Assembly (NCBI GenBank): GCA_964589175.1 | Contig: CAZPRY010000007.1 | Coordinates: forward strand, 52,938 to 116,937 | Source: an uncultured bacterium | Lineage (GTDB): Bacteria > Fidelibacterota > UBA2242 | Direction: 5' to 3' | Length of the DNA: 64,000 nt | Shown: positions 2,049-39,268 of the stretch, one piece after another | How the letters are laid out: the number at the start of each line of letters is the position of its first letter | Numbering within the stretch: position 1 is the first letter of the stretch | The notes under the pieces: generated by a model | Told to the model about the DNA's origin: nothing | Database searches by the model: none | What the model saw: the letters and a program-made list of their open reading frames with translations, nothing else | Position numbers and translations under genes: made by a program

Positions 2049-3881
2049 TCAGCGTTCCATTTTCAGGACGGCCAGAAAGGCTTCCTGCGGGATTTCCACC
2101 CTTCCGACCTGCTTCATACGGCGTTTCCCCTCTTTCTGCTTTTCGAGCAGTTTTCGCTTGCGGGTAATATCGCCGCCATAGCATTTGGCCGTCACGTTTT
2201 TGCGCAACGGTTTGACGGTGGAACGCGCGATGACCTTGCTGCCGATTGCAGCCTGGATCGCCACTTCAAACATCTGGCGCGGTATCAGTTCTTTGAGTTT
2301 GCGGCATAGCTCCTGCCCCTGATGAAAGGCGTTATCCCGGTGAACAATCAGGGATAATGCATCGACCGGTTCGGCGGAGAGCAGGATATCCAGCTTGACG
2401 AGATCACCGGGCCGGAATCCAATCTGTTCGTAATCAAAAGAGGCGTAACCTCTGGAAACCGATTTGAGTTTATCGTAAAAATCGTAGACGATTTCGCCCA
2501 ATGGAAGTTCGTAAACCAGCTGGACCTTTTCGGCATCGAGATAGTGCGTGCTCTTGTAGATACCCCGCCGATCCTGACAAAGCTTCAATATATTCCCCAG
2601 ATAGGTCGTCGGGACGATAATCTCGGCCTTCACATAGGGTTCGTGAATACCTTCAATGTCACCGACCGGCGGCATCTGGGACGGATTGTTGATTTCGATT
2701 CGGGCGCCGTTTCTCTGAAATGCCACGTACTTCACATTCGGCATGGTGGTGATCAGGTTCAGATTAAATTCCCGCTCCAGCCGTTCCTGCACCACTTCCA
2801 TGTGCAGCAATCCGAGATAGCCGCAGCGAAACCCGAAACCCAGGGCGTTGGATGTTTCCGGCTCATAGATCAGCGAAGAGTCGTTCAACTTCATCTTTTC
2901 CAGCGCATTGCGTAAATCTTCGAAGTTCTCGCTATCCACGGGATACATCCCGCTGAAGACCATCGGCTTGATTTCCTGGTAACCGGCCAGCGGTTCCGTC
3001 GCCGGGTGGATCCTGGTCGTGATGGTATCGCCAACGTTGATATTGGAGATGTCCTTAATGGCTCCGACGATGTAGCCGACATCACCGGCCTGGAGGGTGT
3101 CCGCTTTGAGCCGTTTCATCTTAAAATGACCGACTTCCGTCACTTCGTACACCGAATTATTGGAGAAGAAGCGGATGACGTCGCCGGCTTTAACCTGACC
3201 TTCAAATACGCGTATGTAGGGAATCGCGCCCCGGAAGGCATCATACGTGGAATCGAAAATCAGCGCCCGCAGTGGTTTATCCGGTATTTTTTCAGGGGAT
3301 GGAATTCGCTCGATGATAGCTGCAAAAACGTCCGCCAATCCCAAACCTGTCTTGGCACTGGTCAGGATAATCTCTTCCTCGTCGCAGCCAATCAAATCCA
3401 TAATCTGGTGTTTGGCATGCTCTACCTGCGCACCGGGCAGATCAACCTTATTGATAATCGGGATGATAACCAGGTCGTTCTCAATAGCCAGATAGGCGTT
3501 GCTGACCGTCTGAGCCTCGACGCCCTGGGCCGCATCAACCAGGAGCAGCGCCCCTTCACAGGCGGCCAGACTGCGGGATACCTCATAAGTGAAATCCACA
3601 TGCCCGGGTGTATCGATCAGGTTCAGGATGTAGTTTACGCCTTTCGGATCCCGGTATTCCATCTGGATCGGATGGGATTTAATCGTGATCCCACGCTCGC
3701 GTTCGAGATCCATATCATCCAGCACCTGGGCTTTCATATCGCGCTGGCTGATCGTATGGGTGAATTCCAGCATGCGATCGGCCAGAGTTGATTTTCCGTG
3801 ATCTATGTGAGCAATGATAGAAAAATTTCGAATGCGATTATCCATAGCCAAAAATTTATCGAAAATCTCTCCTCGAAACAA
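2049..3881 (-). CDS. lepA: Elongation factor 4 (LepA)
   Basis: 610 aa with a translational GTPase N-terminus [18 protein letters not shown], the DTPGHVDF and NKVD motifs, and the LepA-specific C-terminal domain. Confidence 0.95.
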
Positions 3882-3932
3882 GAAGGGTTTTGTCTATCTC
3901 CACGGATAAATTCAGCGCTGAAGGTAACGGAT

Positions 3933-4529
3933 TTATTGCGCTTCCGTCCGGTAAAGCTGATGTTCGCAAATATAGGCCTCTACCGCAGGGTTGACCAGGT
4001 AGCGGATCGACTCTCCGCACCGTAGTTTCTCCCTGATCCGGCTGGAGGAAATTTCGATCACCGGCGATTGTATGAATTGCACTTCCGCCAGGAATTCCGG
4101 CTGTACGCGGCCGGGATCGAAGCCGGGGCGAGGAGCCACCAGAAGTGTGACGCGTCTCAGTATTTCCTGCGGTTGACGCCACCTGTGCAACTCCATCAAA
4201 CTGTCGCTGCCGATCAGAAAATAGAAATCCTCGCGGGATAAATGATACACACGGTTGATTGCATTGATCGTATCGATGGTGTAGGAGATGTCTGCGCGGT
4301 CGGCTTCCAGCGTGGACAGTTCGAAGCGCGGATTACCGGCAATCGCCAGTCTGACCATCGCGACTCGATGCTGAATTGCGCTGCAGTCCTGAGACGACTT
4401 GTGCGGCGCCAGATATGCCGGTAAAAATAGAATTTTATCCAGTCCGAACTGATCTAATAGCGACTCCGCAATTATCGCGTGCGCAATATGGGGAGGATCG
4501 AAGGTTCCGCCGTACAGACAGAGGCTCAT
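3933..4529 (-). CDS. nadD: Nicotinate-nucleotide adenylyltransferase
   Basis: 198 aa. The N-terminus LYGGTFDPPHIAHA is the (H/T)xGH nucleotidyltransferase motif characteristic of NadD, and there is a C-terminal SSSRIR motif. Confidence 0.85.
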   Translation of the reverse strand: MSLCLYGGTFDPPHIAHAIIAESLLDQFGLDKILFLPAYLAPHKSSQDCSAIQHRVAMVRLAIAGNPRFELSTLEADRADISYTIDTINAINRVYHLSREDFYFLIGSDSLMELHRWRQPQEILRRVTLLVAPRPGFDPGRVQPEFLAEVQFIQSPVIEISSSRIREKLRCGESIRYLVNPAVEAYICEHQLYRTEAQ

Positions 4530-5329
4530 TGGGGAGACTTCTTTTCCTGTTCCTTCTGAATTTTCTTCTGCTCTTTATCCAGGGCTCGTTTCAGGACCAT
4601 CAGTTTGTCTTTCCTGGCCGTCAAATCTTCTTTCGCCTGCAGATCGCCGAGCAGAGTTTCATACTCCTCAAATTTCCGCAGATGGATCAGACACAGCGCC
4701 TTGTCGAGTTTGGCAGGTATCGCCCATTGGCTGTCGTAATACGTGGCGAGTAAATTATCGAAGTAAATAATAGCCGATTCCCATTCCTGAAGTTTGATAT
4801 AGAGAACCCCGGATTCATAATTTTTGCGCGCCAGTTTATTGCGTATATCCCGAATCTTCTCTTCAACCTCGCTGCGATATTTACTCTGCGGGTAAGAATC
4901 CAGAAATTCCTGGAGTGACTGCAAGGCCCGCTCGGTATTGGTCTGATCGCGTTGATACCGGGGAGATAAATTATAGTAACAACGGGCTATTTTATAGGCT
5001 CCGTCTTCCGCCAGCGGGCTGTAGCTGTAGCGCTCCGTCAGGGCCTGGTATTCGGAAATCGCCAGTAAATAGTCTTTTTTCTGAAAGTAACTCTCGCCGA
5101 CATAATATTGAGCGTCATCCGCCAACTCGCCGCCGGGGCTGTTCAGCAGCACCAGGTTGAAACTCTGGATGGCCTTCTCCCAGCGCTTCTTCTTGAATTG
5201 CTCCATGCCCTGTTCATAGTATTTCGTGTAGTCGCTGAAGGCCTGGGGCTTGACATCCGCACAGCGCATGAAAATCAGGGCAAACAGACCTGCCAGTAAA
5301 CCCGTAAGATACCGCTTCATTTTTATCAT
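4526..5329 (-). CDS. TPR-repeat outer-membrane assembly factor BamD-like protein (YfiO family)
   Basis: Signal peptide followed by TPR-like repeats with a BamD-like pattern (YYVGESYF...AISEYQALTERY...YPQSKY...). It ends in a K/E-rich tail. It overlaps the nadD start by 4 nt. Confidence 0.6.
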   Translation of the reverse strand: MIKMKRYLTGLLAGLFALIFMRCADVKPQAFSDYTKYYEQGMEQFKKKRWEKAIQSFNLVLLNSPGGELADDAQYYVGESYFQKKDYLLAISEYQALTERYSYSPLAEDGAYKIARCYYNLSPRYQRDQTNTERALQSLQEFLDSYPQSKYRSEVEEKIRDIRNKLARKNYESGVLYIKLQEWESAIIYFDNLLATYYDSQWAIPAKLDKALCLIHLRKFEEYETLLGDLQAKEDLTARKDKLMVLKRALDKEQKKIQKEQEKKSPQ

Positions 5330-5382
5330 AAATTCATTTCACCTATGGTGATTCCGTTATTTTACTAATTCTATTTGCCCGG

Positions 5383-6309
5383 CTAGAACGCCAGATTGAG
5401 GCTGACACCGCGCAACGGATTACGCTGGCGATAGTCAGTGATCAGGCCGAGGTGCCAGCTGACCTGGGTTTCCCCTTTAAATTTTTTGGCCGCGATATTA
5501 GCGTCGAAGGCGCTGATCAGGTGGTTAAACATCAGGACAGTCACAAAATTGGTCGCCATCTTGAGCGCATCGTTTGATTCTTTACGCTGGGTCAAATAAT
5601 CATTCCGGTAATCATTCATATATAACGTATCTGGTTCGGTTCCATTATTCTTTACTCCGAAATCATCCCAGCCACCGGCAAACTGGTCGTATTTCCCGAT
5701 ATTCTCGTAAAAATCGCGAGTCTTGATTGGGGTGATATCATCGCTACCGCTCGCCATCAGGGAAACCCAGCCCGGAACATACTTATTCAGCGTGTCCGCC
5801 TGGGCCATATATTCCTGTTCGTTGTATTCGACGTAGATGTGATGCGATCCGAAATTCTTACTATGGTATCCGCTCGGGCCGGACATGGTGTTCCAGAGAT
5901 TATTGGCCCATTCCTGGATGTTCCAGTGGGTGTCGGCGTAATCCTCAAAATCTCCTTCCAGGCGCAGACCGCGGGATTTGCTACCGTACCACAGGCCCCA
6001 GCCGGCGGCCTCAATCCCGGCATAGATCAAGGCTCTCCACTTGGCCCCGGCGTACAATTGGCCGGTACCCGGAACTACGGCTGAGAACAGAAAGGCCCGT
6101 CCGGGAGATTTGATATATTGAAAAGTGGTATCAACACCCTCATCGGATTCCCCGTACTTCAGCTGGTTTATGAATTGGCCGCGCAGGACCGAATTCTGAT
6201 CCTGATTTGCGGGGAGTTCCTGGGCCCCCGCCAAGCTCAGGATCAAGGCAACTGTCAAAACAATCAGGGTTAGTATTCTGCTGCTCATCTTACCTCCATC
6301 AAAGTCCAA
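5383..6309 (-). CDS. Secreted hypothetical protein with a conserved SAVVPGTGQLYAG motif (DUF5683-like)
   Basis: An N-terminal signal/TM segment is followed by FLFSAVVPGTGQLYAGAKWRALIYAGIE, which resembles the DUF5683 core. The alternative start at 6288 (MSSRIL) avoids an 11-nt overlap with the upstream gene. Confidence 0.55.
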   Translation of the reverse strand: MDFDGGKMSSRILTLIVLTVALILSLAGAQELPANQDQNSVLRGQFINQLKYGESDEGVDTTFQYIKSPGRAFLFSAVVPGTGQLYAGAKWRALIYAGIEAAGWGLWYGSKSRGLRLEGDFEDYADTHWNIQEWANNLWNTMSGPSGYHSKNFGSHHIYVEYNEQEYMAQADTLNKYVPGWVSLMASGSDDITPIKTRDFYENIGKYDQFAGGWDDFGVKNNGTEPDTLYMNDYRNDYLTQRKESNDALKMATNFVTVLMFNHLISAFDANIAAKKFKGETQVSWHLGLITDYRQRNPLRGVSLNLAF

Positions 6310-9300
6310 ATAAAATTGTTATGTATGTTCGCCATTCACCGCCATAAATATGCGCCTCATCGCGCCTGTCGATAAGCTCAAATTTATCCAATCCGTAGAC
6401 AAAGTCTAGACTTATTGCGGTCGGATAGGCATAAAATGAAAATCCGCTGAAACGCAACTGCATGCCCACGTCGGTTTTAAAATCCGCCGTGATCTGTTGA
6501 ATAACATCCGCCGGGCTATTCGCAAATTTCTTCCAGCCCAGTTGGGGATAGTCCTCAACCTGGCTCCAGGCATTACCGGTCTCCACGTACGCGCCGACAA
6601 ATGCGTTCTGCAGATTGAATACGCCCAATTGCATGTTTTTTTCAACAAACAGCGGGTGGCGCACGGTGTAATGAAAGGTCAACAGATTACGCCCTTCAAT
6701 GCTGTAAAACGGGTAGCCTCTCAGCCCCGGCAGCCCTCCGGCGAAGAAATGGAAAAACGAATCCACATCCGGCATGCTGATCCAACCCAAACGCCATTTG
6801 AAATTTCCGACCATCTTTTTTAGAACGGGATACTTATGGTAAACGTTCCCTTCATGATCGATTTTCCAGTAATAATTTTTACGAAAAATTTCCCTCAGGG
6901 TGCCGAAATCCTCATAAATCCCGAATTCCTGCATGAAATTGTCGAAGTTGCGCGAAATGTTGGTGGTCATTTCGAAGCCGTTATCGGGATTCGTCTCGGA
7001 GTTGACATTGGGCAGGATTTTGCGCTTGTTCCAGCTCAGTTTCAGATAACTACCGCGATAGTAATCATAGGTAAATCCGGAACTGTAAATTCCCTGAGAT
7101 TCGATCCTCTCATCCGTGCTGGTCCGGTAACGGGCCAGCCCTGCGTCGAGACGCAGGTGGTTGAAACCGTCGATCGGGCGCGATACACCGAAGATGGCCT
7201 CGGTCAGGTAGAAGGTATAATCGGTATTGATCGGGTAACCCTTCCAGGTCAGCTTCTGGTTGAGAATATTGCGGCTGATATTGTAAAATTCGAGGAAAAA
7301 GGTGGGCTCCCACTGATGATACTCGAGCGTTACGAATAGATCACGGTCGCCGATCCGGTTCAACGAGGCCGTACCGAAAATGCTGAAGCGCTCCAGAATC
7401 TCCGAGGAATAGAAATAGAAACCCGGTTTGGCGGTACCGTAATCGATCATCAATTTGGGTAGAATGAAAATCTTGGCGAACTGGTCCCGGTACTTCTGGG
7501 GTTCGGGGAAATCCTGCTGCACCACGGCCATCATCGCCGGCTCCTGCATCGGCTCCGGAAAGTACACGGCCTCTTGCGCCGCAAGTACGGCAACCGTATC
7601 CAGCCGCGCGACTTTAAAAGCCGAATTATCGAACAGCGCAAAAACCAGCTGCCCTTGCCGGTTGACGGCCGGCATCATCGCGCCGCCGACAACATTGGTC
7701 AGCAGTTCCGTCTCCCCCGTCGCCAGTAAGCGCCGGTAGATGTTGAAAATCCCGGTCTGGTCGGAGGCGTAATACAACCATCGGCCGTCAGGGCTGTAGT
7801 AGGGATTGCGTGTATCCCAGTCGTGCCCGTCGAAAATTGTCATGGAATCCGATTCCAGGTGATACACGGAGATGTCGCGGCCGTGATTCAGGGTGTAATC
7901 GAAGGCAATCCGTTTCCCGTCCGGCGCCCAGTGGACGGAGAAGAGTTCGATACCGTCGTCAAAATGGGTCAGCTGCTTTTCTTCCCGGGATTCGAGGTCA
8001 AGCAGCACCAGGTTGGAAGTGCCGTCTTCCCCGGTGATGAACACGATTTTCTTGCCGTCGGGTGAAAGCGCGGGCAGATAAGCCCGGCGAAATTTAGTGA
8101 TCTGCTTTTCTTTTTTGGTGTGTAAATCATAGTGGTAAATATCAAAATAGACCGAGCCATGTTTATTGGGCTTGCTCTTTTTGGAATAATAAAGGTATTT
8201 GTTATCGGGTGAAAGACTGATCCGCGAATGCACTTCCGCCTTCAGCAGCCGGTCTTCGTTCGTCACCGCATTATGGACATATAACGAGGTCTGGCCGTAG
8301 TAATCACGACCTTTGTTGGAGAGATAATAAATCAGCGTGTCGGCACCCCATTCGGGATAGATCTGGGTTGTGCCATCCCCCAGAATTATTTCTCCGCTCA
8401 CCGCATGTTGCCGGATTCGTTCGGTCTTTGCGGCGTAATCTTTTTCAAGCGTGTTTTTCCAGTCCCGGTAAATTTCGTCAGCCGATACTCCGGTAGCCTT
8501 CTTCAGAGCGCTGGTAACAGAAAATTGCAGCGGTGCCGACAACAGGTCCATCATCCGCGGGCAAATTTCGGAACCGAAGCGCCCGGTCAAATATCGTACA
8601 AACGCATAGCCCTGGTTGTACACCGATTCGTTGCCGATGCCTCTTTTACCGAAGCTGCCCATTTGGTCGAGGCTCAGCAGGTGATGATTCAAAACACGGT
8701 CGCGCAGGAGCATGTCCCGGTGCGTATCCCAGAGATCGTTGGTCGATCCCGGGTACTGGAACTGCGCCACACCTTCCGCCAGCCACATCGGCATCACAAG
8801 GCCCGGCAGCGGGTAGGAGGCGATCACGCGCGGATAACCGTAAACGACATCGTCCCGCTTTTCATCCTCGTAGTCGATGACCTGCAGGTAGGCAGCCGGA
8901 ATACTGCGCGGTAATTTCATCGCCTTTTGCAGGCTGACGATATGGGCGAATTCATGCGCGATTACGTCTCTCAGCCACTGATGGTTGCCGCGCAGCAGGA
9001 AGTCCAGCGGCGTCGCCCAGAGCTCGATCTTATTGTCGTAATAATAGGTCGCGCCGTTCGAGTAATCATCATAATCCTTGACGTACAGGTGCGTCTTGGA
9101 ATCCGGTTCGAAATTGTAAAATGAAGTTATCGGACCGTAAACGGCCTCGCCGATTAGAGCCGTCTCTTTGGCGGTCCATTCCGCCCCTTCATGATAATGA
9201 ATTTTGAAGTGCGGAGTCTCGAAACTCAGCCAGTCCAATTCGGGATGATTATATCGTTCCTGAGCAAAGATTATAACCGTACCGATTAAAAGAGTCAATA

Positions 9301-9337
9301 TTGCAGATAGAATTTTCGGGAATATTTTTGCGATCAA
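6299..9337 (-). CDS. Omp85-superfamily outer-membrane protein with an N-terminal Peptidase_MA_2-like zincin domain and TolB/PD40 beta-propeller repeats, and no POTRA domains
   Basis: 1012 aa. Signal peptide; zincin motif HEFAH...WLAEGVAQF; PD40-like repeats (SPDGKKIVFI, WAPDGKRIAF, YSPDGRWLYYASD). The C-terminal barrel carries the Omp85 motif FAGGLPGLRGYPF. It is a paralog of the 25166-28276 protein. Confidence 0.7.
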   Translation of the reverse strand: MIAKIFPKILSAILTLLIGTVIIFAQERYNHPELDWLSFETPHFKIHYHEGAEWTAKETALIGEAVYGPITSFYNFEPDSKTHLYVKDYDDYSNGATYYYDNKIELWATPLDFLLRGNHQWLRDVIAHEFAHIVSLQKAMKLPRSIPAAYLQVIDYEDEKRDDVVYGYPRVIASYPLPGLVMPMWLAEGVAQFQYPGSTNDLWDTHRDMLLRDRVLNHHLLSLDQMGSFGKRGIGNESVYNQGYAFVRYLTGRFGSEICPRMMDLLSAPLQFSVTSALKKATGVSADEIYRDWKNTLEKDYAAKTERIRQHAVSGEIILGDGTTQIYPEWGADTLIYYLSNKGRDYYGQTSLYVHNAVTNEDRLLKAEVHSRISLSPDNKYLYYSKKSKPNKHGSVYFDIYHYDLHTKKEKQITKFRRAYLPALSPDGKKIVFITGEDGTSNLVLLDLESREEKQLTHFDDGIELFSVHWAPDGKRIAFDYTLNHGRDISVYHLESDSMTIFDGHDWDTRNPYYSPDGRWLYYASDQTGIFNIYRRLLATGETELLTNVVGGAMMPAVNRQGQLVFALFDNSAFKVARLDTVAVLAAQEAVYFPEPMQEPAMMAVVQQDFPEPQKYRDQFAKIFILPKLMIDYGTAKPGFYFYSSEILERFSIFGTASLNRIGDRDLFVTLEYHQWEPTFFLEFYNISRNILNQKLTWKGYPINTDYTFYLTEAIFGVSRPIDGFNHLRLDAGLARYRTSTDERIESQGIYSSGFTYDYYRGSYLKLSWNKRKILPNVNSETNPDNGFEMTTNISRNFDNFMQEFGIYEDFGTLREIFRKNYYWKIDHEGNVYHKYPVLKKMVGNFKWRLGWISMPDVDSFFHFFAGGLPGLRGYPFYSIEGRNLLTFHYTVRHPLFVEKNMQLGVFNLQNAFVGAYVETGNAWSQVEDYPQLGWKKFANSPADVIQQITADFKTDVGMQLRFSGFSFYAYPTAISLDFVYGLDKFELIDRRDEAHIYGGEWRTYITILFGL

Positions 9338-9355
9338 ATCTCAGCTCATTCTGTG

Positions 9356-12300
9356 CTATCGAATTATCATTACTTTGACGATCTTACTGATCGATTCACT
9401 GCCCTGCTGCGCTTTTACAACGGCAAAATACACGCCGCTCTGAACGCCGGAGACATCCCAGACTGTTTCGTTATAATCACCGACGAGGGGATCTTCATCC
9501 GTTAGCGCAGCCACGAAATCTCCGGCCAGATCGTAGACCTGGATCGAAACACGGCAGGATTTCCGGACGAAATAGCGGAATGCCGTTTCGTTACCTTTTA
9601 CCGGATTGGGCCAATTGAAAACACGCTGCAGATCAAGCAGTTCGTCCGGCGGCGGAGCTTGCGTATCGGATTTAATCGAGATGGAAAAATTGCGCTGGGG
9701 ATTGCTGCCGTAGGCAGTCCACATAATATCCGTCAACTGCCCCGCAGAGAGTTTACGCGCATTCAACTGAGTGCCGGCGGCATCCACAGAAACGTGTACG
9801 ATCCCGTCGGGCGAATCCAGCAATAGGACGCTGTTGCCATTGTAGACGGGAAGCGTGACGGGGAAATTCGGGAGCAGCTGGCCCTTGCGGTCGAAGGCTG
9901 CAATGCCGACACCATGAATTCCGGCGAGGAGCGTCAGCCGCCCGGCGTCATCACAGCTTGTCAGCAGGTAAGGATCGAAATAACTGTAGTTGAATTGGTT
10001 CGGAATCGACGCCGGAAAATTGGCTTCCAATACCAATCGCTCTGTGAAGACGTAGATGTGCGCCGAATCGGCCAAGGCGATCTCGATTTTGTCATCTCCG
10101 TCGATATCCGCCAGGACCGGGAACGGGTAATAATTTTTCAGTGGATAGGAAAATTGCCGGATGTTTTCCGGTTCCGCCAAAGCTGCATCCAGAACGGTGA
10201 CGATTCTATCTTCCCCGCAAAGGACCACATCCGCCACGCTGTTGTCGTCCAGCCAGCCGACCACCATATCGCCGATCATCGTCAGGTCGACATCGGTCAG
10301 CAGTTGCAGCGCCAGCGGCGCAGTTTCCAGCAGGTATAATTCCCCTTCCCCGCTAACAGCGAAAACCTGATCGGCATCCCCTGCTAGTCGCGCAATAGGC
10401 TCCGGCACGGAAATCTGTTCCGGACCGTAGCGCAAGATATTTTGGTCCGTTGCCGAATCGTAGAATGAAAAGAGCGGCTTGCCATGGAGAATCATTGCAT
10501 TGGAAGTGAGCACTGCCGCCGGGAAGGACTCCCGGTTGGCGTATTGCAGCCGATTATTGAGCAGGCGATAACGGTACAGACTCAGGCTGCCGTCAGTCTC
10601 CACAGTCGGGATATAGACGGAAATCTCGCCCGCATCGACGGCCAGCAGCGGCGTAGCAATGGTCGACAGATTGCTCGTAAAGCCAGTCGAGATCCGTTGC
10701 AGAATCATCCCCTGAGAATCGATCAGGAAAAGACTGTCCCGGTCCACCACAACGAAGTTCAAGACTCCGTCTTCCGCTCCTGTATCGAGCTGCAGCAGCC
10801 CCAGAATTTTTCGATCCTGACCCAATGGAAGGGGAAAATTTCCAAGGTTCCGATCCAGATGAATACGGAAATTCATCTGTTCGCCGGCGGGACCAATTTG
10901 ATCAATCGCGATCCCGGTGTAAGCATTGGCATAACTGCGCGACGAAGGTTGGGTGGAGTTCGTCAATCCGACACTGCGGATGGAGTCTTCCGGATATTCG
11001 GGATTCAAATCCCAGAAGCCGTCATTTCCGGCAAACCACGGATCGAAGTACCAGCCGATGTCGACATTCGCGCCGAAGAGCTGGCCTTCATAGCCAAGGT
11101 CCTGGGCGCCGTCGCCTTCCTCGAGATCAACCCCGCGGTGCTCCCGGTCGATATTGACTTTATTGGCTGAAAGATTTGCCTCGATCACCGATTCGTCGAT
11201 GTGCCAGATCAGCAATCCCGATCCGGGCAACCCGGCATCATACCGCGGCACGGACAGCAGGACTCCCGTTCGCGCCGAGAATTCCGCCTGCAGTGAATCG
11301 CGGATCAGCGGGAAAATCAGCGGCCATCTCTCCTCGCCGTTGTCTTTGTAAATTTTATACTGAATACTGTCGAGACTGACGCCCGGGCGCAGTTCGGCGT
11401 TGCGGTTCTCTACCAGGAAATATTCGTTTTCATCGATCGGAACCTTCCAGATGGATGAAGTCGTCGCCGTCTCGGCGTTTTGCAGCGTGATCTCCTGATC
11501 CGTCCCGGCCGGCAGCGGTTCTTCCCAACCCATAAAAACGCGTGACCAGGCCGTCGGAAGAGGCGGAATCAAACCGTTCAGATTGGCGGAACCCTGGTCC
11601 ATCAAACCGAACTTGCCGACGCCGGTTTCACCGGTTTCGGTATTGTACAATCCCGGCAATCCCAGATAGAAGCCGGTCATGAAGGCGAAGGTGCCGTTCA
11701 AGCCGATCTGGTAGGCACATGGTTCGTCGGCTCCGCCGAAAACTTCCTCCCAGTTCGAGAACAGCAGATGGTTTTGGGTTTCCGGTAAAATCATACCGGA
11801 TACAATCAGATCATTGCCGCCGTCGACCGGGATACCCGCAAACGACGCATTTCCCGGAGCAGCAAAGAGGGCCAGGTCACCGGTATTCAGATAAACCGAG
11901 GGAATATCGTAGGGCGTCGGATCCAAATCCAGATCGAAATCCTGCCCCACCCCGGCGTGGAATACAACCACGAGATCATAATCCGCGAACTGCAAATCCG
12001 CGTCCGCCAGTTGCACGGCTTCGTAAAATAGTTGCGCCAGGCGGGTATCCACCGAGTCTTTCACTAGAAACGGGTGGTAATATTCCATTTTACGGGGCAG
12101 CTGATAAGTCAGCGCGTCGTCGAGCGGATAGACCTCCGAACGCAGCGTATCAAGAAGCAGATGGCCTTTGGACACATGGCCGTAGTAGTTGGAAAGCGCC
12201 CGGATATGATCCTTGAAATAAGCCCTGTTATGCGGCGGTGGATCGACCACCAGGGAGGCGCAGACCGTGTCCTGGGCGGTGGTTAAAAACCGGCCGTCGC

Positions 12301-12496
12301 CGGTCGTGTAATCGCTTTCATCCGGGATAAAAGAAACCCGTAACGCACAGATTGATATGTTATTACTATGTGTCTGAACTTCTACAAGCCGCTTCCCCGT
12401 TTGCAGGGAAGGGCTAATTCGCCGCGTCGCGGAATCATTCGCCGCGAATAAAATATGGCATACCAGCAGAGCAAAAATAAGACGATGTATTTTCAT
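9356..12496 (-). CDS. Large secreted M6 (immune inhibitor A)-like pseudo-peptidase with a T9SS C-terminal sorting domain
   Basis: 1046 aa with a signal peptide. It matches the M6/InhA-conserved blocks VVFHAGVGQ and GLLIWHIDES. At the position of the catalytic HEFGHDLGLPDEYD it has FAFMTGFYLGLPGLYN, so the HExxH is lost. The C-terminal ~90 aa (NWPNPVKGNETAFRYFV...VSIQVYDLAGDFVAAL...SGVYFAVVKAQ) fits the T9SS type A CTD (TIGR04183-like). Confidence 0.65.
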   Translation of the reverse strand: MKIHRLIFALLVCHILFAANDSATRRISPSLQTGKRLVEVQTHSNNISICALRVSFIPDESDYTTGDGRFLTTAQDTVCASLVVDPPPHNRAYFKDHIRALSNYYGHVSKGHLLLDTLRSEVYPLDDALTYQLPRKMEYYHPFLVKDSVDTRLAQLFYEAVQLADADLQFADYDLVVVFHAGVGQDFDLDLDPTPYDIPSVYLNTGDLALFAAPGNASFAGIPVDGGNDLIVSGMILPETQNHLLFSNWEEVFGGADEPCAYQIGLNGTFAFMTGFYLGLPGLYNTETGETGVGKFGLMDQGSANLNGLIPPLPTAWSRVFMGWEEPLPAGTDQEITLQNAETATTSSIWKVPIDENEYFLVENRNAELRPGVSLDSIQYKIYKDNGEERWPLIFPLIRDSLQAEFSARTGVLLSVPRYDAGLPGSGLLIWHIDESVIEANLSANKVNIDREHRGVDLEEGDGAQDLGYEGQLFGANVDIGWYFDPWFAGNDGFWDLNPEYPEDSIRSVGLTNSTQPSSRSYANAYTGIAIDQIGPAGEQMNFRIHLDRNLGNFPLPLGQDRKILGLLQLDTGAEDGVLNFVVVDRDSLFLIDSQGMILQRISTGFTSNLSTIATPLLAVDAGEISVYIPTVETDGSLSLYRYRLLNNRLQYANRESFPAAVLTSNAMILHGKPLFSFYDSATDQNILRYGPEQISVPEPIARLAGDADQVFAVSGEGELYLLETAPLALQLLTDVDLTMIGDMVVGWLDDNSVADVVLCGEDRIVTVLDAALAEPENIRQFSYPLKNYYPFPVLADIDGDDKIEIALADSAHIYVFTERLVLEANFPASIPNQFNYSYFDPYLLTSCDDAGRLTLLAGIHGVGIAAFDRKGQLLPNFPVTLPVYNGNSVLLLDSPDGIVHVSVDAAGTQLNARKLSAGQLTDIMWTAYGSNPQRNFSISIKSDTQAPPPDELLDLQRVFNWPNPVKGNETAFRYFVRKSCRVSIQVYDLAGDFVAALTDEDPLVGDYNETVWDVSGVQSGVYFAVVKAQQGSESISKIVKVMIIR

Positions 12497-12563
12497 TTTG
12501 TGACAACAATTGAAGTAAAATTATCGATATTTCACCAGATCTGAATCGGCCTCCGGATCTGCT

Positions 12564-13787
12564 CTAGAATTGAATATTCAGTGAAAACAGCATGGTATTC
12601 TGACGGGGATGCCCGGGATCGCCGGCGGTGTAACCGAAATCGAATCCCAGCCCGGCATAGCGCAAGCCCGCACCGAAGGTTGGCACCGGATACTTGTCTT
12701 TCATCAGGATCTTGCCCACTTTGTCATAGATAAATCCCAAACGCAGGGCAAACAGATTCGAATACCAGTATTCAACACCGAAATTATGCGTTAACTTTTC
12801 CAGCTCGCGGCCCAGAGAACCGTCTTTGGTGTTGCCGTCTTCGTCTTTTTCACCGAGGCCGTCCGCCTCCGAATCATGCAGCAACAGCCAGTCGTCAACC
12901 CAGGAAGTGAAAAGCCCAACATACCAATCGTCGGAATGCGCCTCTTCATAGCGACCGTCCTTGTTGTAAACGCCACCACTGAATTTATGGCCGTTTTCAT
13001 CATATCCGCCGATCTTCCCGTCGCCGTCAATGTCGCGATTAGGGTAGGAGGAGACCAATAATTTATTGATGTCGTAGGACACCGTGATTTTGTTGTAATT
13101 GCCTTTCATCGTATAAGCCAGCCCCATCTTCAGGTTGGTTGGCATCGGATCGGCCTGGGATACATCGATAAATGAAATTTTCGGTCCGATATTGGAAACC
13201 GAGGCGCCGAAAGTCAGGTTCTTCAACAGGAATTGTTTTTTCATATATCCCACATCAAAACCGAAATTCGTGGAGTAGCCCTTACCCTTTTCCTTACCGG
13301 CCAGAATATCGGTCAAATGCTGATAGATCATTTTCACACCCACGCCCACCGACGAAGTACGTGTGAGCTGGGTTCCGTATGAAGCTGTAAAAGCCATCAT
13401 GTATGAGGCAAATGTGCCGAGATAATTAGCGCGTTCATCCATGGCCACCTGCTCACCCAGGTTCATAATTGTGATATTACCGCCGATGGTGCCGATATCC
13501 CGGAAGAAAAAATGGCCGCCCAGGAAATCGTAGTAGATATCCGAGGCCAGGTTCGGCAGCCAGTTGGTGTGCATCAGGGCCGCTTCGCGTCCCCGTAAAA
13601 AGCCCAATCCGGCCGGATTCCAGTAGCTGGCATAGGCATCATCGGCAATGGCGACACCCGATTCACCCATCCCGCCTGAGCGGGCTCCCGGATTAATTAA
13701 CAGCCAGATGGCCCCGGCTTCACTCTGTGCCAGGGACAAACTGAACATCGCGCATAAAACAAGTGCAAGAATCAGTATTTTTTTCAT
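12564..13787 (-). CDS. Outer-membrane beta-barrel protein, PorV/PorQ-like (T9SS-associated family)
   Basis: 407 aa. Signal peptide followed by an N-terminal GARSGGMGESGVAIADDAYASYWNPAGLG block. The rest shows an alternating hydrophobic beta-strand pattern, with a C-terminal ...LFSLNIQF ending in Phe. It lies immediately upstream of the CTD cargo gene. Confidence 0.6.
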   Translation of the reverse strand: MKKILILALVLCAMFSLSLAQSEAGAIWLLINPGARSGGMGESGVAIADDAYASYWNPAGLGFLRGREAALMHTNWLPNLASDIYYDFLGGHFFFRDIGTIGGNITIMNLGEQVAMDERANYLGTFASYMMAFTASYGTQLTRTSSVGVGVKMIYQHLTDILAGKEKGKGYSTNFGFDVGYMKKQFLLKNLTFGASVSNIGPKISFIDVSQADPMPTNLKMGLAYTMKGNYNKITVSYDINKLLVSSYPNRDIDGDGKIGGYDENGHKFSGGVYNKDGRYEEAHSDDWYVGLFTSWVDDWLLLHDSEADGLGEKDEDGNTKDGSLGRELEKLTHNFGVEYWYSNLFALRLGFIYDKVGKILMKDKYPVPTFGAGLRYAGLGFDFGYTAGDPGHPRQNTMLFSLNIQF

Positions 13788-13969
13788 TCGTTCCTCCTAG
13801 TAACAAAAAACCGAACATAGACAATATTCGGCCTTCCAACTAGTTATTTTTAACTTAGTCCAGATTTTGTTGCTATTGATTAGTCACAGGATAACAATTA
13901 TTTTCGGCAAACTCCACTTAACCGGTGAAATCTAAGCGTATTCATATCAAGAATCAAGCCTAATTCGAT

Positions 13970-14134
13970 CTAAAAACCTTCGGCCTCTTCGATCAACATG
14001 ATCGGGATATCATCCTGAATATCATATCGCAAGTGGCAGGCAAGGCAGCTTAACTTTTGATTCTCCGGATCGTAATCCAGATCGCCCTTGCACCGGGGAC
14101 AGACCAATATTTCCAATAATTCTTTGGACAGCAT
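13970..14134 (-). CDS. Trm112 family protein (UPF0434 zinc-ribbon, 54 aa)
   Basis: Translated by hand as MLSKELLEILVCPRCKGDLDYDPENQKLSCLACHLRYDIQDDIPIMLIEEAEGF. It has the canonical Trm112/YcaR CPxC...C pattern. It is below the 60-aa cutoff of the ORF track. Confidence 0.65.
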   Translation of the reverse strand: MLSKELLEILVCPRCKGDLDYDPENQKLSCLACHLRYDIQDDIPIMLIEEAEGF

Positions 14135-14278
14135 ATCGATCTCCTGTTAAATCAAAACGGTTTGGGTTTGAAATTGAAGAAAGGTCGATATGGATCAGAC
14201 TCGCGGTAGCAAATTCAATCTTCATACTCGGCCTGGCTGCAAAAGTTCCCGGGCGCAATCATTCCAAGCATCAAAAAT

Positions 14279-14728
14279 CTAAAGAGACATTTTGTTGATC
14301 TGATCCTTGAACTCCTCCAAATCCTTGAACTGTTTATAGACGGAGGCAAAACGGATATAGGCAACTTCGTCGGTATCCTTGAGATGCTTCATCACCAGTT
14401 CACCGATTTGTTTGGATGCAATTTCACTGCCGGATGTCTCCTCGATACCCTTCTCAATTTCCAAGACAATCTCTTCGATTTTATCCTGTGGAATGGGACG
14501 TTTGTTGCAAGCGATTTTGATGCTCTTCTGGAGTTTCGCGCGATCGTATTCCTCGCGCGAACCATCGTTTTTAATAATCACCAGCGGGTAATCGACGACG
14601 TATTCATAGGTGGTGAAACGATGACCGCAATCCAGGCATTCCCGGCGGCGGCGAATCGCATTGTTCTTCTGGGCAGATCGCGAATCGATCACTTTGGTTT
14701 CCGGTGAACTGCAAAAAGGGCACTTCAT
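14279..14728 (-). CDS. nrdR: Transcriptional repressor NrdR
   Basis: MKCPFCSSPETKVIDSRSAQKNNAIRRRRECLDCGHRFTTYE is the NrdR zinc ribbon; an ATP-cone follows. Confidence 0.9.
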   Translation of the reverse strand: MKCPFCSSPETKVIDSRSAQKNNAIRRRRECLDCGHRFTTYEYVVDYPLVIIKNDGSREEYDRAKLQKSIKIACNKRPIPQDKIEEIVLEIEKGIEETSGSEIASKQIGELVMKHLKDTDEVAYIRFASVYKQFKDLEEFKDQINKMSL

Positions 14729-16052: not shown

Positions 16053-16481
16053 CTAGATTTCCATTTTCTCCACCCGGCGCTGATGCCGGCCACCCTCGAA
16101 GGGGGTGCTCAGCCAGGCCAGGAAAATTTCCTCGGCGTCTTCAGGTGTCACGAAATCGGCCCCGAAACAGAGCACATTGGCGTTATTGTGCCGACGGCTC
16201 AGTTCGGCAACTGCCCGGTTCCAGCCCAGCGCCGCCCGGATGCCCCTGATCTTGTTGGCCGCGATGGTCATGCCTTCTCCGCTACGGCAAATCAGAACAC
16301 CGAAATCGGTTTCACCGGAAGTTACACTGCAGCCTACTATCCGGGCATAATCCGGATAATCCACGCGCTGTTCTGAAAAGGTGCCAAAATCCAGAACCTC
16401 GTATCCCTGTTTTTGGGCGAAACTCAGCAGGTCGCCTTTCAGTTTAAAACCGCCATGGTCCGAACCAAAAGCAATTTTCAT
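16053..16481 (-). CDS. rpiB: Ribose-5-phosphate isomerase B
   Basis: MKIAFGSDHGGFKLK... is an RpiB/LacAB family N-terminus. The start ATG overlaps the upstream stop in a TAATG arrangement at 16479-16483. Confidence 0.85.
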   Translation of the reverse strand: MKIAFGSDHGGFKLKGDLLSFAQKQGYEVLDFGTFSEQRVDYPDYARIVGCSVTSGETDFGVLICRSGEGMTIAANKIRGIRAALGWNRAVAELSRRHNNANVLCFGADFVTPEDAEEIFLAWLSTPFEGGRHQRRVEKMEI

Positions 16482-17776
16482 TAATTCTGCTTTGCCTCGG
16501 CTGTAATCCAACTGTATTCCGGCATTTTAGGACGGAAGAGCTTGCGCTCGGCGCCGTCCGCATCATATTTATTCATAAACCAATCTTCATTTGTCGGGAT
16601 GAGATATTGTTTCAGAAAATCAATCCGGCTTTTGACTCCCAAATCGCCCATTTTCTGGGCTTGCAGATAATCGTCATACGCCAGTTTATAGACCAGTTTA
16701 TCTTCGAATGAGGGGGGCCGTCCGCTTGTGATCATCTCGGCGGCCTCAAAGTACACATCCGCGCGCATTTTATAGGTGAGCGCACTTTTTTCGATTGCCA
16801 GTGCTTTTTGGGACCACTCGTAAGCATCCGCCCACTTCGCGAGACGGCGGTAACCCCGAACGATATCTTCAATAATCGAGACATCTGTAAGGGCGATATT
16901 TTTATTGATATAGATGAAGGCCTCGATCGCTTCGTTATGCTTTTCCATCGTCGCGTAAATCTCGGCCATTCTCTCCCAGGCCTCACGATTGCGCATATCC
17001 AGGGCGGTCACCTTTTTGTAAACGGCGATGGCTTCGTTATAACTATACTGCTCCGCCAGAGCCCGCGCATATTCAAGGCCGTAACGGACATTGGTCGGAT
17101 TTTTCTCCCACTGCGCCTTCTGCACCGTCGTGATGTCCTTACCCAATTTCTGGTAAACAGTAATCCGGTCGTTGATAGCCTGTTCGTCATTGGGTTTCAG
17201 TCTCAGGATTTCGCTGATATAGAGCAAAACATCTTCGTAACGTTCGGCGGCAAAACCGAGTTTTACCAGACGGCGATAGTGGTCGATATTTTCCGGCTCA
17301 ATTTCTACCATTTTTTCGTATTCCCGAATTTCCAGATCGGTTTTCCCCTGCAATTGGTAGATGTAGGCAATATTTTTATGCAGAAAAATATCGTTGGGGA
17401 GGTGATCTTCTCCCTCCTGATACACATAGAGGGCACTGTCGAGATAAATGGGATTTTTAGTTGCCAATTGCTGGTAGGCGCGTCCGTAATATTGAAAAAT
17501 ATCCACCGCGCGCGTTTCTTCACAGCCGGCATTGATCATTTTTTTATAGTTACTGATCGCTCCGCGCCAATCCTGATTCTGATAGTACGAATAGGCAAAA
17601 CTGAGATACAGTTCGCATTTTACATCTCGTAACGAGTCCTGACGCGCTTTCTCCGCATTTTCGAGATTACTCATTTGCCCGGCGGCATCTGATGGTGGCA
17701 GGCAATTCACCAAATAGAAGCCCGCAAAAATCATTACAATCAGTATGGCGTATTTCCCAAGACGCGGTACCTTCAT
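16481..17776 (-). CDS. TPR-repeat protein with N-terminal signal/TM anchor
   Basis: Tetratricopeptide-like repeats run throughout. I placed the start at MKVPRLGKY (ATG at 17774-17776), which is preceded by a GGAGGAGGAG Shine-Dalgarno sequence. Confidence 0.65.
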   Translation of the reverse strand: MKVPRLGKYAILIVMIFAGFYLVNCLPPSDAAGQMSNLENAEKARQDSLRDVKCELYLSFAYSYYQNQDWRGAISNYKKMINAGCEETRAVDIFQYYGRAYQQLATKNPIYLDSALYVYQEGEDHLPNDIFLHKNIAYIYQLQGKTDLEIREYEKMVEIEPENIDHYRRLVKLGFAAERYEDVLLYISEILRLKPNDEQAINDRITVYQKLGKDITTVQKAQWEKNPTNVRYGLEYARALAEQYSYNEAIAVYKKVTALDMRNREAWERMAEIYATMEKHNEAIEAFIYINKNIALTDVSIIEDIVRGYRRLAKWADAYEWSQKALAIEKSALTYKMRADVYFEAAEMITSGRPPSFEDKLVYKLAYDDYLQAQKMGDLGVKSRIDFLKQYLIPTNEDWFMNKYDADGAERKLFRPKMPEYSWITAEAKQN

Positions 17777-17794
17777 GTCACACTCCTCCTCCAA

Positions 17795-19000
17795 TTAACG
17801 TCTTTTAAATTGTTTAAACCACAATTCACCCGTTGTAACCCCCACGTGCAACGAGATAAGGTTTTCGTTTCCGAATTGACTGCTGAATCCATCCCGGCGG
17901 GCTGCAATCAGAGCAATGTCCAAACGATTCAGACCTCCATAAAAGGGAATCCCTAATCCGACGGACACGCCGGTTTCTTTCAGGGGATCGGACTGGGAGA
18001 ATATCTCCGTCTTCTGATACAAACCAGCCCTGTAAGATAATTTTTGCAGCGCCTTCCTGTCTTTCCGAGGGGATGGACTCTTCTCGATTCCGATACCAAT
18101 CACATATGCATTTTGGGCATCCACCGGCTCATTCAGGTAGAACTCCTGAAACATGGAACCGGGCGCCGTATAATAACGGAAATCCGCCACAACAAGCAAG
18201 TCGTGCGGCAGTAGCCGGGCGCAGCCCAGGGAAAATGTCGAGGGATAATCCAGAGACCGGTTTTCCTGGGTACTGTCCGGACCGTACTGATAATCCAACA
18301 GAAAATCATATTGGAAATTAATATTCTGATCCCAGTAGGCCGCAATGGTCGTTTTTTGTGGGCGATCCGTCCAGGCCAGTCCAAGGCCGGTTTGCACTCC
18401 CCGCAGGTTATAGCGTCTCTGCTGGGAGATATCGATATCGTCGTCCTGCATGAGATCCACGTCATGCGTTGTGGCGATGTTGCCGTAGAAAAACCTGCCT
18501 ACGAGGCCCAGGCTCAGGTTCGGGGACAGTTTATAGCCGAATCCCGTGTAAAGTTCGGAAATTCCACCAACCGTCTTCTTGGTCGATTGATAGGTATATA
18601 CCGTATCCGCATATGGCGCGTCACCGGTATAAATTTGCTCACTCGACATGCGTGTTACCGGGCGCATTCCCATGGCAAAGCCCAACTTCTTTCCAATCGG
18701 CATTTTAAAAGCAAAGCCCATGAAACGGGTCATCGATCCCGTATAGTCCCGCTCGGCGGCATTGACAAACTGGGTGTTCAACTGCCCCTGCATGGAGGTT
18801 GTCAGAAAACCGTGCCACAATGCCGGGCCCAGGGTATTCAGACCGATCGAGTCGCGCGCGGCGCTTCCCGAAAAGCCCATTCCGATATTACGTACCGGAA
18901 CCGAAGGGGAACCCATTCCGAATCCGTACGACGAGTAGATCGAATTCTGAGAAAACAGAAAACCGGTGATCAGGATAACGGCAAGGACAATTTTACGCAT
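17795..19000 (-). CDS. Outer-membrane beta-barrel protein, a second PorV/PorQ-like paralog
   Basis: 401 aa. Signal peptide followed by an N-terminal GFGMGSPSVPVRNIGMGFSGSAARDSIGLNTLGPALW block resembling the 12564-13787 protein. The alternating beta-strand composition is the same. Confidence 0.5.
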   Translation of the reverse strand: MRKIVLAVILITGFLFSQNSIYSSYGFGMGSPSVPVRNIGMGFSGSAARDSIGLNTLGPALWHGFLTTSMQGQLNTQFVNAAERDYTGSMTRFMGFAFKMPIGKKLGFAMGMRPVTRMSSEQIYTGDAPYADTVYTYQSTKKTVGGISELYTGFGYKLSPNLSLGLVGRFFYGNIATTHDVDLMQDDDIDISQQRRYNLRGVQTGLGLAWTDRPQKTTIAAYWDQNINFQYDFLLDYQYGPDSTQENRSLDYPSTFSLGCARLLPHDLLVVADFRYYTAPGSMFQEFYLNEPVDAQNAYVIGIGIEKSPSPRKDRKALQKLSYRAGLYQKTEIFSQSDPLKETGVSVGLGIPFYGGLNRLDIALIAARRDGFSSQFGNENLISLHVGVTTGELWFKQFKRR

Positions 19001-19001
19001 G

Positions 19002-20264
19002 CTAATTCGTCTCTTTAATGGTAATTACTTGCAGATAGGGCGCCCGGGCCGTGTCCGTTTGGGCGGACGCATACAGACTCAGAACCGACAGATCCAGGGT
19101 CGAAGGTGACGACCAGAGCAGGAATCCAAAATTCTTCTGTTCGGTACTCATATATTGCTGAACCGTATAACTGATCTTGAAAATCGCCTCACCATCGCCG
19201 GGCTTCAGCGAACAGGTGGCGATATAATCGCTCGTACTTGTCGTCAACGCCTCATCGTACCATTCGGTCGAATCCAGCTGCGTCAGGTATAGGTAAAAAT
19301 TCTCGTTGTAATTGAAGGTCTGCGTTGTATCCACTTTAAGGTGAAGGATGGCTTCTCCGACGATTTCGTTTTTATCCGTGAGCGCATCCGTGAGATCGAT
19401 TTTTAGAAAGGAACGGTAAGCCTGCCCCTTGCTGACATAGCTATGGCCGGGGTCCGGTGCAATGTCAAAGAAGCGTATTACGGAAATATCTTCCGAAGCA
19501 TAGGTCGTCGTGGAGACCGTATCGCCCTCATAAAAGAAATCCGCGATCAGCGCCGGCGCATAGTAGGAATTTTCGGCGGAGGTAAAGGCCTGCATCAGCG
19601 GTTCGGTCGTATCCGCAGCCTGCAGCAACAAGCCGTAATTATACAGGGAATCGCCATTATACCAGTCATCGTACCAGCCCCGGAAAACAGAATTCGGGAT
19701 TTCAATTTCGATGGAATCATTATTAGAGTAGGCAAAAGTACCGAGCAGTTCCCGATCAAAACCCTCGAGTGACCAGGTGTCCGGAAAAGTATCCTGCGCC
19801 CAGTTGACATGACTATCGGAAGAGAGCAGGTATACCGCAATTTCGTGGTTGTGGACATTCAGCGAATCGTAAGGCAATTCCGATTCGGTGCGAATCACAA
19901 AAATGGAACTTATCAGCGAATCCACCAGGCTACTCAATCCCGTGAAATCGTTAAAACGGATCAGCGCATAAGCCGACGAATGTTCATCTCTGCCGGCCAG
20001 CAGCCGCAGACTCGACTTCAGTTTGGGGGTCAATATCTGAGTTGAATCGACGATGTGATCGGCTTCAATCCTGACGTCCGAAAACAAAAGGGGGGCGGTA
20101 TTGGTCTCCTCATACGGTATTTGTTCCGAACAGGAGGGCATTAGAGACAGAGCCGCGAACGCAATCACCAGGGCACCACGTACGATTCGGTTTCTATTTT
20201 CGGATTGAAGCAGCTCCCGACTGCCGCCGGATTTATATACTCTCGATAATCTTAATAATTTCAT
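19002..20264 (-). CDS. Hypothetical lipoprotein
   Basis: Signal peptide with a possible lipobox (LSLMPSC). The protein is acidic, Ser/Thr/Tyr-rich and likely periplasmic or surface-exposed. It is tightly packed in an operon with the flanking genes. Confidence 0.55.
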   Translation of the reverse strand: MKLLRLSRVYKSGGSRELLQSENRNRIVRGALVIAFAALSLMPSCSEQIPYEETNTAPLLFSDVRIEADHIVDSTQILTPKLKSSLRLLAGRDEHSSAYALIRFNDFTGLSSLVDSLISSIFVIRTESELPYDSLNVHNHEIAVYLLSSDSHVNWAQDTFPDTWSLEGFDRELLGTFAYSNNDSIEIEIPNSVFRGWYDDWYNGDSLYNYGLLLQAADTTEPLMQAFTSAENSYYAPALIADFFYEGDTVSTTTYASEDISVIRFFDIAPDPGHSYVSKGQAYRSFLKIDLTDALTDKNEIVGEAILHLKVDTTQTFNYNENFYLYLTQLDSTEWYDEALTTSTSDYIATCSLKPGDGEAIFKISYTVQQYMSTEQKNFGFLLWSSPSTLDLSVLSLYASAQTDTARAPYLQVITIKETN

Positions 20265-39254: not shown

Positions 39255-39268
39255 CGGCTTTCCTACGA

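Follow-up and report, generated by a model that had tools for sequence, protein, structure and literature searches.

The open reading frame (ORF) at positions 6299-9337, minus strand, of the DNA stretch analysed here encodes a protein of the Omp85 superfamily that is almost certainly located in the outer membrane, and in which an N-terminal zincin metallopeptidase domain and a TolB-like propeller precede a C-terminal beta-barrel. The stretch, hereafter called the window, comprises 64,000 nucleotides of contig CAZPRY010000007.1 (assembly GCA_964589175.1) from an uncultured bacterium of the Fidelibacterota. With both the propeller and the N-terminal zincin present, the layout of this target protein matches the POTRA-less 'WD40-like' subfamily of Omp85 proteins. 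New here are the strict conservation of the active site and a conserved four-gene outer-membrane cassette to which the gene belongs. As a whole, these findings suggest, with moderate confidence, an outer-membrane-anchored, propeller-gated periplasmic protease that would work with its cassette partners, the functional part of this reading being much less certain than the architecture and the family assignment.

Overall architecture and family assignment

Translation of the target begins at a TTG, which is the first start codon past an in-frame TGA and lies 18 nt past the stop of the gene upstream; its orthologs align from residue 1 and share a conserved N-terminus. Residue numbers in the text follow the ORF, while the ortholog alignment and the full-length AlphaFold2 (AF2) model begin at residue 2 and are hence one lower. 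The full-length model has a mean predicted local distance difference test (pLDDT) value of 85.8 and a predicted template modelling (pTM) score of 0.84. At the N-terminus, the signal peptide that the initial annotation had proposed is borne out by K4 and K8, a hydrophobic stretch from residue 9 to 24 and a predicted cleavage site (IFA/QE) after A25, and no lipobox Cys is found in this segment. As read from these features, a Sec signal peptide is well supported.

The family is broadly distributed, a point on which the initial annotation had left a check to be made. In a pattern scan of GTDB species genomes, relatives were found in at least 587 species from several phyla. The best 80 of these, which are full-length and 37-62% identical and form the basis of the locus counts given below, belong to Marinimicrobia/Neomarinimicrobiota/Fidelibacterota, KSB1, Caldithrix/Calditrichaeota and Ignavibacteria, and also include metagenome-assembled genomes labelled Cytophagia, Chitinophagaceae or Deferribacteres, labels that are unverified. 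Caldithrix sp. and Calditrichaeota genomes are among those that encode a full-length ortholog.

The Omp85/TpsB superfamily has been divided into ten subfamilies by Heinz and Lithgow (2014, Front Microbiol 5:370, PMC4104836). In the WD40-like subfamily of that study a TolB-like propeller replaces the POTRA domains, which was discussed as reminiscent of a BamA-BamB fusion. The members in Table S3 come from Caldithrix (H1XQ58), Rhodothermus (D0MEQ5, D0MCT8), Cloacimonas (B0VIY2), myxobacteria and others, and several of the genomes contain multiple WD40-like members. For these proteins the same table reports Phyre2 matches to the BamA/TamA barrels 4k3b and 4c00 (confidence 99.7-100) and to TolB (99.9-100), together with a 'best aminopeptidase hit' among 1z5h, 4kxd, 4fgm and 3qnf (98.7-99.4). 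The view of the initial annotation that the layout was undescribed is therefore not upheld. The subfamily is catalogued rather than well characterised, and in 2024 WD40-like Omp85 proteins were still considered not well characterised (Hanson et al., PMC11116518). The target family itself is a discrete, divergent clade within the WD40-like layout.

A paralog with the same three parts is encoded on the opposite strand of the window. It scores 44.2 bits for Peptidase_MA_2 over the whole model, above the gathering score, and is 21% identical to residues 2-609 of the target by BLASTP. Its C-terminus matches TamL, many of its homologs have PF01103, and NCBI gives some of them the name 'BamA/TamA family outer membrane protein'. 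Comparison of the two families by hhalign indicates homology over 813 columns (probability 100%, E 2e-57), the barrel included, and the paralog family is widespread in Marinimicrobia.

The zincin domain

The HExxH...E pattern of zincins that the initial annotation had read in HEFAH and WLAEGVAQF is confirmed by its conservation. The two motifs occupy residues 128-132 and 185-193, and in a set of 46 full-length orthologs (40-65% identical) H128, E129 and H132 are each present in all 46 sequences and E188, the presumed third zinc ligand, in 45. Across the 80 species loci, which span several phyla, HE[FY]xH is found in every one and W[LF]AEG in 79; the offset between the two motifs is +57 in all but two of these 79, in which the regular expression took an earlier HExxH. 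On the target the Pfam family Peptidase_MA_2 (PF13485) scores 25.5 bits, the gathering score being 32.4, and the same family is matched at E<=1 in all 46 orthologs, with a best value of 1.2e-12. In addition, the paralog, whose own PF13485 score is above the gathering score, aligns to the target motif-to-motif by BLASTP. No match was obtained when the zincin profile was compared with PDB sequences.

In the AF2 model the domain runs from a beta-sheet through the HExxH helix, a beta-hairpin and the Glu helix to a helical subdomain, an order of elements that is, as predicted, the zincin layout. H128, E129 and H132 share one helix (120-138 in model numbering) and E188 lies on the next (183-192). 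The beta-hairpin between these helices is an insertion that has no counterpart in the paralog family according to hhalign, and it contains invariant K, P, Q, E, R, D, V, G and P columns. On the evidence of sequence conservation it is well supported that the zincin site is intact, conserved and under selection; zinc-dependent peptidase activity of the domain is a prediction.

The propeller and the linker

The TolB-like PD40 repeats claimed in the initial annotation are matched with an E value of 1.6e-15 by Pfam, and the NCBIfam TolB-propeller model (2.1e-34 over part of the model) and TolB in the PDB (1.9e-16) are matched as well, while DPPIV_N is also found on the target by Pfam. Following the zincin, the AF2 model has six blades of four strands each. 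The closest matches of this domain, both by sequence and by Foldseek, are the propellers of TolB and of S9 peptidases, and Foldseek results for the full-length model are dominated by propeller matches.

Between the propeller and the barrel lies a linker that is mostly coil, and the absence of POTRA domains noted in the initial annotation holds: at E<=1 the target gives no match to any POTRA family, and the 25 of 35 families listed for the 46 orthologs do not include one.

The barrel

The C-terminal domain, modelled on its own, is predicted to be an Omp85-type barrel that is highly divergent in sequence. This assignment rests on the comparison of the model with known barrels and on the loop 6 (L6) motif between strands 11 and 12. 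In the comparison the figures were 22.0 for Deinococcus radiodurans BamA, 20.6 for Sam50, 20.4 for TamA, 20.3 for FhaC, 19.9 for CdiB and 16.5 for Toc75, and 14.7 for the first barrel outside the Omp85 superfamily. The 16-strand Omp85-type barrel, which the initial annotation had left to structure prediction, is thus present in the model. Likewise, the Omp85 hallmark that it had pointed out, FAGGLPGLRGYPF, is found within residues 861-878, with GLRGY at 871-875 in the strand 11-12 loop. The family form of the motif is FFxFFxGG..G(L/I/M)(R/K/Q)GY, in which the G and Y are present in 46/46 orthologs and K or Q stands in place of the R in 28/46; the motif was detected in 75/80 loci.

Sequence comparison shows how divergent this barrel is. 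Against PDB sequences the barrel profiles produced just marginal TamA matches (E about 0.4-1), and the sole match, itself marginal, aligns the L6 region to FFAGG..IRGY of TamA. The barrel profile finds 487 representatives at E<=1e-3 among 1.84 billion sequences, the full-length ones having their barrel at about 600-1050, so it does not cover the bulk of BamA sequences. The family searches that the initial annotation had named gave an uneven result: PD40 is matched, Peptidase_MA_2 is below threshold on the target and present in 46/46 orthologs, and PF01103 has no match on the target at E<=1 and is found in 6/46 orthologs (best 6.9e-10).

A conserved four-gene cassette

The target is the third of four genes that follow each other on the minus strand in the order PorV-like barrel, M6-like protein, target and DUF5683 protein. 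The spacings are 67 nt and 18 nt, followed by an 11-nt overlap of the DUF5683 gene with the 3' end of the target. This arrangement is kept in Marinimicrobia, KSB1, Calditrichota and Ignavibacteria. When the neighbours were compared with the 80 GTDB loci by tblastn, the PorV-like and then the M6-like gene were found upstream on the same strand in 57/58 loci with enough flank, and the DUF5683 gene downstream in 71/72 loci. BamD is next in line in 42/68 loci, which are of the Marinimicrobia/Fidelibacterota type and not KSB1, Caldithrix or Ignavibacteria, and the regions flanking the cassette vary between loci. The operon structure rests on the short gaps and the conserved gene order, because a promoter and terminator scan of 3800-14400 gave sites no more numerous than in shuffles. 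In the literature searched no description of the cassette linkage was found, nor any functional study on DUF5683, on Omp85 proteins with PorV or on TolB-like Omp85 proteins.

The M6-like partner matches NF052323, the NCBIfam model of a 'T9SS-dependent M6-like inactivated metalloprotease', from end to end, and has a type A C-terminal sorting domain (TIGR04183) of the T9SS (type IX secretion system). No HExxH occurs anywhere in this protein, and the region of the M6 motif reads FAFMTGFYLGLPGLY; judged by its sequence, the partner is catalytically dead.

The other two partners have features of their own. The PorV/PorQ-family barrel, which PorV models cover in two stretches, contains an insertion rich in Asp and Gly (about residues 245-330; DIDGDGKIGGYDENG...) that has the look of a calcium-binding loop. 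The DUF5683 protein, for which no NCBIfam model match was found, has a single strongly hydrophobic segment at its N-terminus and a C-terminal LNLAF that resembles an outer-membrane beta-signal.

In two distant loci of the paralog family no such cassette is present. Immediately upstream of the paralog in the window lies the gene of an M1 aminopeptidase with a T9SS C-terminal sorting domain (23005-24972, plus strand). The adjacency of these two genes was considered as a mirror of that between the target and the M6-like gene and was rejected, as it is not kept in the two distant paralog loci.

Proposed function and its alternatives

Both ends of an Omp85 barrel are periplasmic and its L6 is extracellular, and in PlpD the N-terminal enzyme domain of an Omp85 protein has been shown experimentally to remain in the periplasm (PMC11116518), so the zincin and the propeller of the target are expected to be periplasmic, under the barrel. 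By analogy with S9 and tricorn-type peptidases and with the peptide binding of TolB, the propeller would admit or hold only unfolded polypeptide, which the zincin would then cleave on the inner side of the outer membrane. The outcome may be the processing or clearance of envelope proteins in transit, a job like that of BepA, performed by a protease fused to its own barrel. Gene order suggests that the target could form one outer-membrane complex with the PorV/FadL-type barrel, the M6-like protein and the DUF5683 protein. The dead M6-like protein would be exposed on the surface and tethered via its T9SS sorting domain, and together with the PorV-like barrel it may constitute the outer part of the complex, as the cassette and the BAM complex (beta-barrel assembly machinery) of Flavobacterium johnsoniae both suggest. 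Such a layout would resemble the BAM of Bacteroidota, with its Omp85 barrel, FadL-type BamG and surface canopy. The initial annotation had proposed that capture or processing in the periplasm is coupled to insertion or export by way of the barrel; such a putative link is compatible with the conserved motifs and the gene context.

Two alternatives keep the enzyme active in the periplasm and give it another purpose. S9 and tricorn oligopeptidases are likewise built from a propeller and a peptidase, the matches by Foldseek and hidden Markov model (HMM) include S9 peptidases, DPP IV and tricorn, and the window also holds the secreted M1 aminopeptidase with its T9SS sorting domain. The target may accordingly be pictured as a nutritional peptidase, in which the barrel is an anchor or a passive peptide channel and the zincin and propeller act in the periplasm as an oligopeptidase, trimming imported peptides to support growth and having no role in envelope biogenesis. 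This seems unlikely, as a mere anchor would require neither a conserved L6 motif nor a complete Omp85 fold of 16 strands across at least 587 species, and the cassette partners are outer-membrane or surface proteins, not transporters or catabolic genes. In favour of a dedicated T9SS accessory, the gene is linked almost invariably with a PorV/PorQ-family barrel and with a protein that bears a type A sorting domain. This would be a lineage-specific attachment or sorting module, in which the PorV-like barrel shuttles cargo and the Omp85-zincin protein either processes sorting-domain cargo or assembles or anchors the PorV-like/M6-like surface complex. A large sorting-domain protein beside PorV, in a porU-porV-like arrangement, is typical of the T9SS loci of Porphyromonas gingivalis and F. 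johnsoniae, which counts in favour of such a module. Sorting domains, however, are known to be cleaved on the surface by PorU and not in the periplasm, and the literature searched contains no paper that ties an Omp85 protein to PorV or the T9SS in this manner; a T9SS accessory is, in our judgement, quite improbable.

The remaining two alternatives concern the location and the activity of the zincin. Export of the zincin and propeller across their own barrel and their display on the surface, similar to type V secretion, was formerly proposed for PlpD and for 'Metallo' Omp85 proteins (PMC4104836). It is very unlikely here, given that the enzyme domain of PlpD stays periplasmic (PMC11116518), that an Omp85 barrel has its N-terminus on the periplasmic side, that passage would be required of a folded propeller of six blades together with a 285-aa zincin, and that the full-length model is one compact unit (pTM 0.84). 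There is equally little probability that the zincin has lost its activity and serves as a binding module in a non-catalytic scaffold. The Pfam score below the gathering score would fit this, as would the adjacent M6-like gene, which indicates that a dead metalloprotease fold is in use in the cassette. Nevertheless, all 80 loci retain HExxH and 79 of the 80 have the Glu motif, with a spacing that is fixed in nearly all, whereas the M6-like neighbour lacks any HExxH.

Several points also weigh against a propeller-gated protease acting with cassette partners, which is the reading that we favour. The target itself is below the PF01103 and PF13485 gathering scores, and most orthologs have K or Q in place of the L6 Arg, so the function of the barrel may differ from that of BamA. 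As the wider WD40-like subfamily, including the paralog in the window, is without the cassette, the link to the partners is clade-specific, and gene order is evidence of functional linkage, not of physical contact.

A more far-reaching proposal can be put forward tentatively, as a possibility about which doubt prevails. The four-gene cassette might be a previously unrecognised outer-membrane machine of the non-Bacteroidota phyla of the Fibrobacterota-Chlorobiota-Bacteroidota (FCB) group. It would be a second complex, either similar to BAM or coupled to the T9SS, and its Omp85 barrel would have a surface canopy on top and, where POTRA domains usually are, a periplasmic protease of its own for quality control or processing.

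To our knowledge, the Omp85 proteins studied to date function in protein insertion or translocation or, in the case of PlpD, act on lipids. The WD40-like subfamily is among the last large Omp85 groups without an assigned function, and the present clade, with its strictly conserved active site, extends over hundreds of species from phyla that are abundant in the sea and in sediments. The cassette supplies concrete partners, namely a PorV-type barrel and a T9SS-dependent surface protein, and the proteolysis of unfolded envelope proteins at the outer membrane is a candidate role.

Features of the window

Positions, strands and supporting evidence of the target, its parts, its neighbours and the paralog are collected in Table 1.

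Table 1. Location of the target protein, its domains and motifs, its cassette partners, BamD and the paralog in the window.
Feature	Position	Strand	Evidence or remark
Target ORF: zincin + PD40 propeller + Omp85 barrel protein	6299..9337	-	1012 aa plus stop; full-length AF2 model
Signal peptide, residues 1-25	9263..9337	-	From sequence by eye; N-terminus conserved among orthologs
Gluzincin-type (Peptidase_MA_2-like) metallopeptidase domain, residues about 29-313	8399..9253	-	Pfam on 46/46 orthologs; BLASTP with paralog; model
HEFAH zinc-binding/catalytic motif, residues 128-132	8942..8956	-	Conserved in 46/46 orthologs and 80/80 loci
Clade-specific insertion (beta-hairpin), roughly 26-45 residues, from HExxH helix to Glu helix	8798..8932	-	hhalign, model, alignment
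WLAEG with Glu188, presumed third zinc ligand	8771..8785	-	Start +57 from H128 in 77/80 loci
Six-bladed TolB-like PD40 beta-propeller, residues about 314-581	7595..8398	-	Pfam, NCBIfam, PDB, AF2, Foldseek
Linker, residues about 582-621, mostly coil	7475..7594	-	No POTRA fold or HMM match
16-strand Omp85-type beta-barrel (predicted), residues about 622-1012	6302..7474	-	Ends in aromatic-rich beta-signal (family consensus LFGF)
L6-loop motif FFHFFAGGLPGLRGYPFY, residues 861-878	6704..6757	-	Between strands 11 and 12
Cassette partner 1: PorV/PorQ-family (FadL-type) outer-membrane barrel	12564..13787	-	NF033709 256.6 bits, PF19572
Cassette partner 2: M6-like metalloprotease homolog, 1046 aa	9356..12496	-	NF052323 519.6 bits (cutoff 600); TIGR04183
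Cassette partner 3: DUF5683 protein, N-terminal signal/anchor	5383..6309	-	PF18935
BamD, next after DUF5683 gene, two genes downstream of target	4526..5329	-	TIGR03302 128 bits, above cutoff
Paralog of target, 1036 aa: zincin + PD40 propeller + Omp85 barrel	25166-28276	+	Within the window

Further genes of note lie upstream of the cassette. A BamG-like FadL-type barrel is encoded at 17795-19000 on the minus strand (NF053685, 177 bits; cutoff 250), preceded by a DNRLRE-domain protein (19002-20264, minus strand) that is a possible BamH-like surface partner and followed by a tetratricopeptide repeat (TPR) protein (16481-17794, minus strand). In about a dozen related loci TPR matches are found upstream of the cassette, and BamG matches occur in four of those. 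Elsewhere in the window, an Mla-like lipid-transport operon (35258-40252, minus strand) comprises MlaF, MlaE and MCE/MlaD, and its 707-aa ORF at 37131-39254, with matches to ABC_trans_aux (PF03886), DUF3078 and DUF481, may be a lipoprotein-barrel fusion.

Comparison with known systems

The target shares with BamA and TamA the 16-strand fold, the L6 motif between strands 11 and 12 and the C-terminal aromatic signal. BamA, however, has five POTRA domains, whereas the target has none and shows no sequence similarity at the level of BamA. With TolB it has in common the six-bladed PD40 propeller, for which TolB is the top match both among PDB sequences and in Foldseek. This likeness is restricted to the propeller part, as the target matches TIGR02800 only at positions 196-354 of 418 with 119.2 bits against a cutoff of 343, and neither the alpha/beta N-terminal domain of TolB nor a Tol-Pal context is present.

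PlpD likewise carries an N-terminal enzyme domain on an Omp85 barrel, but it keeps one POTRA domain and is a phospholipase, in contrast to the protease and propeller of the target. BepA is described as a periplasmic zinc protease that acts on stalled clients at the BAM complex (PMC8423444). It offers a functional analogy only, in that a zinc metalloprotease of the periplasm, equipped with a non-catalytic domain for binding substrates or partners, acts on clients at an Omp85 machine; it is an M48 zincin with TPRs, and is soluble and not fused to a barrel.

In the BAM complex of F. johnsoniae, the FadL-type BamG binds BamA at the back and holds a surface canopy in place (Liu et al., 2025, PMC12611786). 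The complex of Bacteroidota and the cassette thus have the same types of parts, namely an Omp85 barrel, a FadL/PorV-type barrel and a surface-exposed partner. The former differs in its canonical five-POTRA BamA, in having surface lipoproteins and not T9SS sorting-domain proteins, and in its lack of a protease.

The closest known relatives are the members of the WD40-like subfamily, which have the Omp85 barrel, the TolB-like propeller in place of POTRA domains and an N-terminal hit to an M1/aminopeptidase-like zincin, and which often occur as several paralogs per genome, as do the two in the window. The account in PMC4104836 is a sequence catalogue only, in which the zincin is named just in a supplementary table. 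As the domain layout has been on record since 2014, nothing is overturned by the present finding alone. What sets the target clade apart from the subfamily as reported there is its more divergent barrel, the insertion in its zincin and the four-gene cassette.

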